Shown: in pieces, positions 45,848 to 63,756 of the stretch | Layout of the letters: every line of letters starts with the position of its first letter | How positions within the stretch are numbered: the first letter of the stretch is position 1 | DNA from: TPA_inf: Saccharomyces | Lineage: Eukaryota | Assembly (NCBI GenBank): GCA_000146045.2 | Contig: BK006934.2 | Location: forward strand, 192,001-256,000 | Length of the DNA: 64,000 nt | Direction: 5' to 3' | The notes under the pieces: model-generated | Seen by the model: only the letters and a program-made list of their open reading frames with translations | Told to the model about the DNA's origin: nothing | Databases searched by the model: none | Translations under genes and position numbers: made by a program

Positions 45848-45939
45848 TGCGAATTCTGTGGATCGAACACAGGACCTCCAGATAACTTGACCGAAGTTTT
45901 TTCTTCAGTCTGGCGCTCTCCCAACTGAGCTAAATCCGC
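45848..45939 (-). tRNA. tF(GAA): tRNA-Phe (GAA) gene with 19-nt intron (45884-45902)
   Basis: The reverse complement reads GCGGATTTAGCTCAGTTGGGAGAGCGCCAGACTGAAGaaaaaacttcggtcaagttATCTGGAGGTCCTGTGTTCGATCCACAGAATTCGCA, which is the canonical yeast tRNA-Phe with an intron 3' of position 37 and an oligo-T terminator downstream. Confidence 0.95.
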
Positions 45940-59100: not shown

Positions 59101-60225
59101 ATGTTTGCAAACGTTGGATTTAGAACTTTGAGGGTCTCGAGAGGTCCCCTTTATGGTATGTTTATTGTTTTATTCATTGGTGTGCTAATTGCTAAATTTG
59201 CGGGACAAATGCTAATCGACTCAGAGACTAACTTTTCTCATATCATAGGATCCTGCAGTCAAATCATCAGCTTTTCCAAGAGGACTTTTTACTCAAGTGC
59301 CAAGAGTGGGTATCAATCGAACAACAGTCATGGTGATGCGTATAGTTCAGGTAGCCAATCAGGCCCGTTCACCTATAAAACCGCGGTAGCTTTCCAACCA
59401 AAAGACAGAGACGATCTGATATACCAAAAACTAAAGGATTCTATTAGATCACCTACAGGAGAAGACAACTATTTTGTTACATCAAACAACGTTCACGATA
59501 TTTTTGCCGGTGTCGCAGACGGTGTTGGAGGATGGGCTGAGCATGGGTATGACTCCAGCGCCATCTCAAGAGAATTGTGTAAAAAAATGGACGAAATAAG
59601 CACTGCTTTAGCAGAAAATTCATCCAAAGAAACGCTTTTAACGCCAAAGAAAATTATTGGTGCTGCATACGCAAAAATTAGGGATGAGAAAGTAGTGAAG
59701 GTTGGTGGGACAACAGCCATTGTGGCTCACTTCCCATCTAATGGAAAATTGGAAGTTGCCAACTTGGGTGATTCTTGGTGTGGAGTCTTCAGAGATTCTA
59801 AACTTGTATTCCAGACAAAGTTTCAAACTGTTGGATTTAATGCTCCTTACCAATTGTCAATCATTCCAGAAGAAATGTTGAAAGAGGCCGAAAGAAGGGG
59901 TAGCAAGTATATTTTAAACACCCCCAGAGACGCTGATGAATATAGCTTCCAATTGAAAAAAAAGGATATTATTATATTGGCTACCGATGGTGTAACCGAT
60001 AATATTGCCACAGATGATATTGAGCTTTTTCTGAAGGATAACGCTGCGAGAACAAACGATGAGTTACAGCTATTATCCCAGAAGTTTGTGGACAATGTTG
60101 TCAGTTTAAGCAAGGACCCCAATTACCCCAGTGTTTTTGCGCAAGAGATTTCTAAGCTAACTGGCAAAAACTACAGCGGTGGTAAAGAAGACGATATAAC
60201 TGTTGTTGTCGTGAGAGTTGACTAA
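59101..60225 (+). CDS. PTC7: PP2C-type protein phosphatase, split as exon 1 59101-59155 and exon 2 59249-60225; the 93-nt intron is in frame and free of stop codons
   Basis: GTATGT at 59156, a branch-like gactaac, and AG at 59247-59248. The track reads the unspliced form as one 374-aa ORF. PP2C motifs lie downstream (DGVGGW, ILATDGV). Confidence 0.85.
   Translation: MFANVGFRTLRVSRGPLYGMFIVLFIGVLIAKFAGQMLIDSETNFSHIIGSCSQIISFSKRTFYSSAKSGYQSNNSHGDAYSSGSQSGPFTYKTAVAFQPKDRDDLIYQKLKDSIRSPTGEDNYFVTSNNVHDIFAGVADGVGGWAEHGYDSSAISRELCKKMDEISTALAENSSKETLLTPKKIIGAAYAKIRDEKVVKVGGTTAIVAHFPSNGKLEVANLGDSWCGVFRDSKLVFQTKFQTVGFNAPYQLSIIPEEMLKEAERRGSKYILNTPRDADEYSFQLKKKDIIILATDGVTDNIATDDIELFLKDNAARTNDELQLLSQKFVDNVVSLSKDPNYPSVFAQEISKLTGKNYSGGKEDDITVVVVRVD
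59156..59248 (+). other. PTC7 spliceosomal intron (93 nt, multiple of 3, no in-frame stop; encodes a hydrophobic helix if retained)
   Basis: 5' splice site GUAUGU and 3' splice site cauAG. The retained-intron reading frame gives FIVLFIGVLIAKFAGQMLIDSETNFSHIIG. Confidence 0.8.
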
Positions 60226-60373: not shown

Positions 60374-63300
60374 TCAGTCGAAAGAACGTTTTAAAACAAT
60401 CTTTTTAATCTTGTTTCGCTCGGTTTTTAGTTTCTCTTCTTCTTCAAGGACATCAGAGACAAATTTCACATCCGTTGGTAATTGTAAAATTCTTGATTGT
60501 GTCTTCTTACCGCTTTTAGTCAAGAACGTAAATGCAATCTTCTTTGGCTTGGATAACTCTTCGTAGGTCTCCTTGCTTGAAGAAGGTTCTTCACTCTTTT
60601 TTAATAATAAAGGTTTTTGAACGCTGACTGGCTTCGAAATTACTGGAATTTTACTGGCAACAACCTTTTCGCTTTTCCTTGCGTCTATGGATTCTTGCAT
60701 CATTTTCTGAAATTGCCTTTCCAATTCTTCTTCCGCTTTCCTTTCTTCCTCATCCTTTAGTTTTCTCTCGTACTCTTCATACATTCGTTTCATTTCAATA
60801 TCTCTGTCTGCGTCAAGATCACCACCATACTCCAAATCAGAGTCGCTGTCTTCTTCTTCTTCATCATCATCATCCTCATCATCATCATCTTCATCATCAT
60901 CCTCATCGCCTTCTTCTCCATCATCATCATCATCGTCATCGTCATCGTCATCATCCTCGTCATCGTCCTCATCGTCTTCATCTTCACTTTCGTCTTGCTT
61001 TGCCTGATGTTTTCCTGGCGCTGACTCTGTGTTCGGTGTACTTATCTCCGCGTCTTCATCTTCTCCTAGTAAATCGACACCATCGTCGTTTTCATCATCT
61101 TCATCCTCATCATCTTCGGTGATTGACTCGATAGGAACAGCACTCTCCTTACCGTTGTGAATGCTTGCAGAAGATCCCTTCACTCTGTCGTCTTTACTTT
61201 TTATTGCGTTTAATGATTTCAGTAAACTTTCCAACCTTGAGGCACTTTCTACCAAATTTTCTGACCTTTCAAATTTAGTGTTTCCGAAAATATTCTCATA
61301 TTTTTTAAATGTGCTTGAAACTCTGAATTCTGTTTCCTTGGGTAAAGGTTGTTCTTTAATAAAAGTATAATACTCGAAAAACCTCAGCAAAAGTTTGCAT
61401 TTCTTAGTAAAAGCTGCAGGGGTCCTGTTGATATTTAACAGAATTGTAGTGACTAGTTGAATCCTGAAATAATTATCCGGTGGATCTGAGTAGTTTAAAT
61501 AAAATGGATTGGGTTGATTGTTGATATGACCAAACCGAATAATGTGGTAGATAGTATCTAACAAAACATCGGATTTTATCATTTCAAAGTTGAATATTTC
61601 AGTTAAGTATCTGACATTTGATATTCTATGCATGTTTTGTCCATAATCGTTAATTTCTAAGCCTCGCTCAATGTTTTCCAGTACTTGGTCTATACATCTG
61701 ATGACGAAATCGCGGCGGTAACTGTATAGACCGCCTAGAACTTTTGTTAATAAGGGAATATTTTGATAGCTAATCTTATGTGGTTTTGAAAACAGAGAAA
61801 ACAGCACTTTCTGAATAGCTACATCGTCCCAGTGAGCTTTCCGAACCAACTTGACAATGTGTTTGAAGTCTAGGCTACTTAGTTCACTTCTAATTAATAT
61901 GCGATAAAACTGTTGTTCAGGCGTTATTGTTTTTACCGTAACATTTAATGATTTTACAGAAGGGGGATAAAGTAAAGTAATTATGTTTTCTAAGGCGCTT
62001 TTCATGTTCATGTTCAATTGCCTATCATTTTTTTTATCCTTGATTAGTTGGACCATTTTTTCCATTAATTCCTTATATTCTGGCTTATTTAGCAGAAATT
62101 TCCCTGAGTGCTCCAACAAAACCGTCAAAATTTCTACGTTATTTGGAACTTGCATATACATGATTAATGTTCTAATCTTATGAAAAATCATAAACGATGG
62201 TATTAATTGAAATTTAATCATTTCACTGAAGAAGATGATGTTTTTAACGTTAATCTTATTAGAATGTAATTGACTCCTGAAGCCATTGTCTAGGTAGTTA
62301 ATAAACTCAGAAACAATTTCCGGCATATATTTGCTATTTGTTGCAATAAATCTGGAATACACTGGCAGTTTGCTCCAATCTTGTGTTTCCATGAAAAATT
62401 TCAATATTCGATTTCTTGTGGCTTTGTTGTCCAAATATGATGACCAATATCTATTTGAAAGGTCATCGATTATATCTTTACAATCTGCCATTTCCAAATC
62501 CGTAAAGAATAGATTGATATTTTTTGAGTTAACGTTTGAATCTTTTTCTGTTTTAGAAGATTGTGATTCTTCTACTGTTTTTGAGATATCTGGTAAGATT
62601 TCATAAAATTTCCTTGTATCTTCATTTTCCCATAATCGTTGGTTGGGTGGCAATATCTGATTCGTGATCATTGGAGAAGCTGTTTCTTTCAGATCATCAT
62701 TAGAGGCACCTTCAAGCTCCGGAATTTCTAACTTAAAAAATTCTCCCAAAGTAATTGCAGATGTCTTGAACCTAATGAATATTGGAAGTAACTTGTCGTA
62801 CTCCTCTACGTACTCATCTCTCAATTTTCCCGTTCTTATTTGGCATTTCTGATGTTCTCTTTGCAGTTTATTGACCTTCTTATGCAGTTCTGTGGCCCTC
62901 GCAAAAGTGGCGTCTATAAAATTCTTAAACAGAGACTGTAACGCACCTTTTAACTTCGAGTCATATATTAAATCATCCCAAGAATTATCATCGTCGCGAA
63001 ACAAAGGTGCAAATTTCTTAATAAATGCGGTCGCAATAGTGGTAGTAAAGCCCAATTTGAACTTATAATTAAGAATCTCTCTGAGAATACTGAATAACAA
63101 CGGATCCTTTCGCCCAGTTTTCTTCTGTAGGAAGTTTGGAATAGCATCTTTCGACTCAATATCATCCAATGTTCTAAAAACTCCAACTAAATAAAGCTCG
63201 GTAAATACCCGAAGATTACCTTTAACTCTGGTTATCCTTTGAAGCTCATCTCTTTCGGATTCAATGTCAACAGAGGGGTTCTCAAAAGCTTGTAAAAAAG

Positions 63301-63756
63301 CTCCTAAAAGCGGACTAGTAAATCGGCCATTGAACCTTTGATGAAGTCCACTTATGATCTCAACAGCGGCAATTACGTCATCATTTTTATTCAAAACATT
63401 TAGCAGACATTCTGTTACCGTCACTATTATCTCTGATAGGTACTTTTCCAAGGACGCCTCACTTAAATCTTTCAATAATGAAGATTCTGAACCTTTCACA
63501 AAACCCTTCTTTAGTTTTTTTATAAAGCCAGTGTTTCTCTTTATACTGGAATCCAGTTTTTTACTTTTCAGGGGAAAGACTTCTTCGCCATTCCAAGCTC
63601 GGGTGTTCAAATCATGCAATTCTTTTTTCCGTCCATCCTGTTGATACATAATTGTTACCGTAGTTTACAACGATCAATAAAAGAAGTTAGTATAAAACCT
63701 TAGAAGTACTGAAAGGCCGATCTGGCCACAGTAAGATAAATCAAACATACGTCCAT
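60374..63756 (-). CDS. NMD2: Nonsense-mediated decay factor Upf2, 1089 aa; exon 1 63751-63756 (ATGGAC), intron 63638-63750, exon 2 60374-63637
   Basis: On the minus strand the sequence reads ATGGAC|GTATGT...TACTAAC...caacag|GATGGACGGAAAAAAGAA, which gives MDDGRKKELHD. It also has MIF4G-like repeats and an acidic tract. The track ORF begins at an ATG inside the intron. Confidence 0.9.
60851..60990. repeat. Coding (GAT/GAA/GAC)n low-complexity tract encoding the NMD2 poly-Asp/Glu segment
   Basis: The plus strand reads as (atc/ttc/gtc)n; the protein is DEDDEDDDEDDDDDDDDDDDDGEEGDEDDDEDDDDEDDDDEEEED. Confidence 0.9.
63638..63750 (-). other. NMD2 spliceosomal intron (113 nt) following a 6-nt first exon
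   Basis: GTATGT 5' splice site, canonical TACTAAC branch point, and AG 3' splice site. Confidence 0.85.

Follow-up and report, generated by a model that had tools for sequence, protein, structure and literature searches.

In-frame intron of the Saccharomyces cerevisiae phosphatase gene PTC7: a translatable, stop-free intron conserved in the Saccharomycetaceae that encodes a predicted transmembrane helix

The PTC7 gene (YHR076W) of Saccharomyces cerevisiae occupies positions 59101-60225 of the forward strand in the window analyzed here, a stretch of 64,000 nucleotides from contig BK006934.2 (positions 192,001 to 256,000). It is almost certainly one gene for two proteins, which arise because its intron is spliced inefficiently and can be translated in frame when it is retained. 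The anatomy of the gene, the open frame of the intron, the hydrophobic insert that it encodes, the conservation of these features in other species and a coding-type constraint on the intron can all be read from the sequence. The retained intron of PTC7 has been known since 2009, and reverse-transcription PCR, western blot and localization experiments on it are already published.

In genomic DNA the gene forms one continuous open reading frame (ORF) of 374 amino acids. Its identity, given as PTC7 in the original prediction, was established by exact database matches for both isoforms. The spliced product of 343 amino acids is identical to the entry 'type 2C protein phosphatase PTC7 [S. cerevisiae S288C]' and to 'Ptc7p' of many strains, and this spliced form is the S288C reference protein; the read-through product of 374 amino acids exactly matches many S. 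cerevisiae assembly entries. Exon 1 (59101-59155, 55 nucleotides) encodes MFANVGFRTLRVSRGPLY and the first base of Gly19, and supplies the basic, acid-free part of a presequence-like region. Exon 2 (59249-60225, including the stop codon) contains the rest of this region and the PP2C catalytic domain. The PP2C/SpoIIE-type phosphatase domain (59500-60219, residues 134-373 of the long form) exceeds the Pfam cut-offs, with 51.2 bits for PF07228 (against 25) and 32.1 bits for PF00481 (against 20.3), and contains the metal-binding aspartate motifs DGVGG, DGVTD and DDIT. The gene product is a predicted PP2C/PPM phosphatase.

The spliceosomal intron (59156-59248, forward strand) is inserted in phase 1 and has a length of 93 nucleotides, a multiple of three. 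It contains no stop codon in the reading frame, compared with three and two in the other two frames. Upon retention it gives residues 19-50, GMFIVLFIGVLIAKFAGQMLIDSETNFSHIIG, and the residue at the exon junction is glycine in both forms (GGT and GGA). The consensus 5' splice site GTATGT (59156-59161) is read as xGT-ATG-Txx, and the 3' splice site, TAG, occupies 59246-59248. A perfect TACTAAC is absent from the intron. The best match, GACTAAC (59226-59232), differs from it by one nucleotide, places the branch-point adenine 17 nucleotides before the 3' end and has the terminal TAG as the first YAG after it. Three weaker copies of the form TGCTAA(T/A) are also present, including TGCTAAT at 59210-59216, which has two mismatches, lies 33 nucleotides from the 3' end and is read as Met-Leu-Ile. 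Two potential stops are hidden by the frame: GACTAAC is translated as Thr-Asn, so that its TAA is avoided, and the TAG of the 3' splice site is divided between codons (ATA/G) and does not act as a stop. The PTC7 branch point is described as non-consensus in reviews (PMC11585973, PMC6506691).

Could such an open intron arise by chance? When introns of 93 nucleotides (31 codons) are shuffled by composition or by dinucleotides, 11-13% are open in this frame, and combined with a one-third probability of a length divisible by three this gives about 4% for one genome. Thus, the observation in a single genome is merely suggestive, and its significance comes from the comparison of species. No Rfam family was found at the intron, and the minus strand over it contains no ORF of at least 40 amino acids.

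Retention of the intron adds 31 residues after residue 18. The best 19-residue Kyte-Doolittle window (KD19) of the whole read-through protein covers residues 21-39, with a mean of 2.29. These codons, encoded at 59161-59217, give the segment FIVLFIGVLIAKFAGQMLI, and the stretch FIVLFIGVLIAKFAGQ quoted in the original prediction corresponds to residues 21-36. On the basis of Kyte-Doolittle hydropathy the intron-encoded segment is a predicted transmembrane helix; TMHMM predictions for it are reported in PMC3597508. The helix directly follows the 18-residue basic N-terminus. No hydrophobic peak is present in the spliced protein, whose KD19 never rises above 0.56. The first 40 residues of the spliced form include six lysines or arginines and no aspartate or glutamate, the first acidic residue being at position 48, and by this crude criterion the N-terminus has the composition of a mitochondrial presequence. 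The claims made from the letters alone thereby stood in every part: that the intron is in frame and stop-free, that the unspliced mRNA encodes 374 amino acids with an extra hydrophobic segment placed right after targeting-like residues, and that splicing yields a soluble PP2C protein (KD19 of at most 0.56, PP2C domain present).

The comparison across yeasts covered the DNA of 12 loci, in each of which the splice signals were located. Eleven species have the intron pattern: S. cerevisiae, a second Saccharomyces with 91% identity, S. mikatae, S. eubayanus, Monosporozyma unispora, Nakaseomyces bracarensis, Naumovozyma dairenensis, Torulaspora globosa, Zygosaccharomyces bailii, Lachancea lanzarotensis and Kluyveromyces lactis. 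The end of the intron was taken in each species as the first usable YAG. All 11 Saccharomycetaceae species carry the intron in phase 1. Its length is a multiple of three in 11/11, although seven different lengths occur (60, 69, 72, 75, 78, 84 and 93 nucleotides), and in none of the 11 is there an in-frame stop. Hydropathy follows the same pattern: the unspliced N-termini reach KD19 maxima of 2.06-2.92, the spliced ones no more than 0.9. Frameshifts or stops in orthologous introns, set beforehand as the refuting test of the original prediction, were absent from all 11 species, with Tetrapisispora blattae as the sole exception.

In the K. lactis assembly the 5' splice site (gene position 47) is GTATGG, and PMC7491326 states GUAUGU. 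This could be strain variation or a different placement of the site; the intron is in any case 60 nucleotides long, divisible by three and open.

When the read-through protein was used as a homology query, many proteins were found that cover 100% of it, which implies that gene prediction in other yeasts likewise runs an open frame across the intron position. The homologous N-termini have three features in common: the splice site contributes a methionine (xGT-ATG-Txx), some 20 residues form a hydrophobic stretch, and the branch site, read in frame (xTA-CTA-AYx at the DNA level), gives an 'LLI' or 'LLT' motif. In general, a phase-1 GTATGT always yields an in-frame ATG immediately before the hydrophobic segment, and several database models of PTC7 begin at this splice-site-encoded methionine.

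Within Saccharomyces, the substitution pattern can be compared between codon positions. In the alignment of four Saccharomyces sequences, the variable intron columns are distributed as 10, 2 and 17 over the first, second and third positions (chi-square p = 0.003). Pairwise, changes at the second position number 0-2 of 31, compared with 8-12 at the third. Judged by these substitutions, the PTC7 intron evolves in the manner of coding DNA in this genus. The encoded peptide itself is rather variable: in an example pair, codon differences in the intron are 10 nonsynonymous to 6 synonymous, against 44 to 120 in exon 2. The insert is less constrained at the amino-acid level than the catalytic domain, which fits a need merely for hydrophobicity.

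The exception in T. blattae supports the same reading, with two specialized paralogs in place of one gene producing two isoforms. Five in-frame stops interrupt the 103-nucleotide intron of PTC7b (GTAAGT...TACTAAC...TAG), and translation through it ends after 20 amino acids. PTC7a has no splice signals and a hydrophobic N-terminus (Kyte-Doolittle value 2.58).

These observations can be combined with published data in the following scheme. One PTC7 pre-mRNA would give rise to two mRNAs, both of them translated. Removal of the intron would produce a continuous basic presequence, taking the 343-amino-acid protein Ptc7s into mitochondria in soluble form. Retention would insert 31 residues, 19 of which would make up a transmembrane-grade helix that interrupts the presequence and serves as a membrane anchor, and the 374-amino-acid Ptc7u would go to the nuclear envelope. 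Because the intron length is divisible by three and the frame contains no stop, the unspliced mRNA would not be a substrate of nonsense-mediated decay (NMD) and would be as stable as the spliced one. The ratio of isoforms would be set by the weak, non-consensus branch site competing for spliceosomes, and such competition would tie the ratio to the carbon source and to expression of ribosomal-protein genes.

The literature describes most of these steps. As related in later papers, both proteins are made, the spliced one being mitochondrial and the unspliced one located at the nuclear envelope; the carbon source shifts the ratio of isoforms, and the unspliced form provides latrunculin A resistance (Juneau 2009 via PMC3597508, PMC7491326, PMC5029451, PMC6506691). 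The precursor and mature mRNAs have similar levels and equal half-lives, and the precursor becomes unstable, as an NMD target, solely when the intron is given an artificial stop (PMC4227748). The spliced fraction in vivo is about 55% (55.3%; bioRxiv 10.1101/2025.10.29.685309). Splicing increases when ribosomal-protein transcripts decrease, by loss of Snf2 or by nutrient depletion, and Ptc7s promotes the synthesis of coenzyme Q6 (CoQ6), whereas Ptc7u represses it, as far as the work is recounted in reviews (Awad 2017 via PMC11585973, PMC6506691). RNA sequencing (RNA-seq) demonstrated intron retention in several species and constitutive splicing or intron loss in the T. blattae paralogs (PMC7491326).

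Three points limit this scheme. Several related species retain the PTC7 intron despite consensus signals (PMC7491326), and thus a weak branch site is not the whole explanation of retention. The secondary structure of the intron RNA, as a cause of poor splicing, was considered and rejected: the fold of 59141-59263 (-23.5 kcal/mol) is not unusual compared with shuffled sequences (z = -0.08). Finally, the role of the nuclear-envelope isoform is poorly defined in the literature (PMC3597508). We found no substantive evidence that contradicts the explanation as such.

One alternative is that the intron is open and divisible by three by chance, the unspliced mRNA and its protein being functionless noise of splicing. 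Yeast has about 300 introns in total. At roughly 4% per short AT-rich intron, chance alone should put a few such cases in the genome, and the faster evolution of the peptide relative to exon 2 (10:6 against 44:120 nonsynonymous to synonymous differences) also agrees with a lack of function. However, chance does not account for 11 species that keep the phase, the divisibility by three through seven lengths, the absence of stops and the hydrophobic core, nor for the strong depletion of changes at the second codon position. In T. blattae, moreover, the two isoforms are hard-wired as two genes, and phenotypes specific to one isoform, namely latrunculin A resistance and the effects on CoQ6, are published, at least as summarized in later papers. 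The splice signals argue that the conservation is not an artefact of gene calling. Chance alone was rejected on the cross-species evidence and is very improbable. The opposite extreme, that the 374-amino-acid ORF is the whole gene and the splice-like motifs are coincidental, would account for the continuity of the ORF and for the many database entries that carry the long protein. Yet all 11 species have, at the homologous place and with proper spacing, a consensus GTATGT (GTATGG in the K. lactis assembly), a branch-site match and a YAG, the spliced protein is the S288C reference, and both junction reads in RNA-seq (PMC7491326) and splicing of about 55% (bioRxiv 10.1101/2025.10.29.685309) have been reported. 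An intron-less PTC7 in S. cerevisiae is next to impossible.

A milder alternative accepts the same two mRNAs and concerns only the destination of the long protein. Signal-anchor proteins and mitochondrial stop-transfer proteins also begin with a short basic segment and a single hydrophobic helix after it, the layout of Ptc7u. Its insert could be a general signal-anchor of the endoplasmic reticulum (ER), a cleavable signal peptide, or a mitochondrial stop-transfer or outer-membrane anchor, in which case continuity with the ER or overexpression would explain the nuclear-rim signal seen with the tagged protein. The cited localization data all come from tagged constructs, and the poor definition of the function of the unspliced isoform leaves room for such a reading. 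On the other hand, the papers consistently place Ptc7u at the nuclear envelope and describe the two isoforms as acting in opposite ways on CoQ6. We consider another compartment unlikely, and prefer the scheme with a mitochondrial Ptc7s and a nuclear-envelope Ptc7u.

A change specific to S. cerevisiae can be observed in the branch-site region. At gene position 110 the three other Saccharomyces have TACTAAT, whereas S. cerevisiae has TGCTAAT, the degenerate copy at 59210-59216 described above. At the downstream site (gene position 126) S. cerevisiae has GACTAAC, compared with GGCTAAC in its closest relative and GACCGAT and GTCCAAT in the others. An ACTAAC downstream of position 110 is absent from the three other Saccharomyces, and in S. 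cerevisiae it lies 16 nucleotides further on. On the S. cerevisiae branch, a near-consensus upstream site was weakened and a downstream site with one mismatch was created. Among the 12 listed protein variants of S. cerevisiae, the only change within the insert is M37I, in the same codon as TGCTAAT. The branch-site change is possibly still polymorphic and may tune the ratio of isoforms. Replacement of ATG by ATA at the M37I codon would restore TACTAAT. A literature search on PTC7 together with GACUAAC yielded just the spliced fraction of 55.3% and an unrelated list of branch-site variants.

Another question is the origin of the arrangement. In intron-less PTC7 orthologs from the Candida (CUG) clade and other yeasts outside the Saccharomycetaceae, the N-terminal hydrophobic stretch ends in an internal methionine within a conserved motif M-L-L-S-x3-K-R (MLLSxxxKR), as in Candida tropicalis, Spathaspora and Scheffersomyces. 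Some database entries from the same clade begin exactly at this methionine, with a basic presequence-like sequence. To judge from these N-termini, the intron-less yeasts might make isoforms with and without the transmembrane segment via alternative start codons or transcription start sites, and the intron of Saccharomycetaceae might stem from intronization of a sequence that already coded for a hydrophobic anchor. An origin of in-frame introns from coding sequence was proposed in general terms by Talkish 2019 (PMC6726248). The choice between anchor and presequence may accordingly be older than the intron, made by alternative starts in the Candida clade and by intronization in Saccharomycetaceae; we regard this scenario as tentative and rather doubtful. 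The Candida-clade proteins carry their hydrophobic stretch upstream of the presequence-like part; those of Saccharomycetaceae have it inserted inside that part, and because of this difference in position the two arrangements may not be homologous. The long forms of the Candida clade could also be gene calls of the longest ORF.

PTC7 has been studied repeatedly (Juneau 2009 and Awad 2017, both as cited in later papers; Marshall 2013; Bonde 2014; Hurtig 2020, PMC7491326). The stop-free intron with a length divisible by three, the transmembrane helix, the conservation in twelve Saccharomycetaceae species and the subfunctionalization in T. blattae are all described in Juneau 2009 and Marshall 2013 (PMC3597508), and Hurtig 2020 (PMC7491326) extended these findings. 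Since all of this is published, the re-finding adds no new biology. Its value is that of a positive control: a real feature, validated by experiment, was recognized from the letters alone, and the proposed test gave a clean answer. The original prediction also called such production of two isoforms unusual in yeast, which is borne out by the literature, PTC7 being the sole known case in S. cerevisiae of two functional proteins made through intron retention (Marshall 2013, PMC3597508). The gene is a standard example of how an intron-poor budding yeast diversifies its proteome by intron retention. Here, a coding cassette of 93 nucleotides decides whether a phosphatase goes to mitochondria or to the nuclear envelope, and couples this choice to the availability of spliceosomes and to respiratory metabolism (CoQ6).

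Two other features of the window deserve mention. The homolog of NMD2/UPF2 is the convergent downstream neighbor of PTC7, as it is at the orthologous loci. Its exon 1 and intron occupy 63638-63756 on the minus strand, with a 6-nucleotide exon (ATGGAC) and an intron of 113 nucleotides at 63638-63750. The mechanically derived NMD2 ORF of 1091 amino acids (60374-63649) begins inside this intron, and the true product starts with MDDGRKKE. A tRNA gene of 92 nucleotides lies on the minus strand at 45848-45939 (Rfam, 56.7 bits); it was missed by ARAGORN in the default mode and, with introns allowed, was recognized as tRNA-Phe(GAA) with a 19-nucleotide intron.

Compared with the published PTC7 system of S. 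cerevisiae, the allele in the window is of the reference type and differs in nothing, with the same locus, intron and transmembrane helix; the conservation and the T. blattae exception reported by Juneau, Nislow & Davis 2009 (Genetics 183:185), PMC3597508 and PMC7491326 were reproduced here independently. The neighboring NMD2 intron, which represents the usual S. cerevisiae kind that causes NMD when retained, resembles that of PTC7 in its 5'-proximal location and its signals (GTATGT...TACTAAC...CAG). In contrast to it, the NMD2 intron has a length that is not divisible by three and in-frame stops from codon 19, and thus its retention cannot give a full protein. An in-frame conserved intron is present also in MRM2 (PMC6726248). 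A related dual localization is provided by human PPTC7, an orthologous mitochondrial PP2C phosphatase reported from the matrix and the outer membrane (PMC11239977, PMC6642090); no sign that intron retention underlies this in mammals was met, although no search aimed at it was made. In yeast, which is poor in introns, FES1 and GCR1 likewise produce proteins with different localization or action from spliced and unspliced mRNAs. There, however, signals within the intron mark the end or the start of the unspliced form, whereas in PTC7 the open intron, with its length divisible by three, is a coding cassette placed inside the targeting signal.

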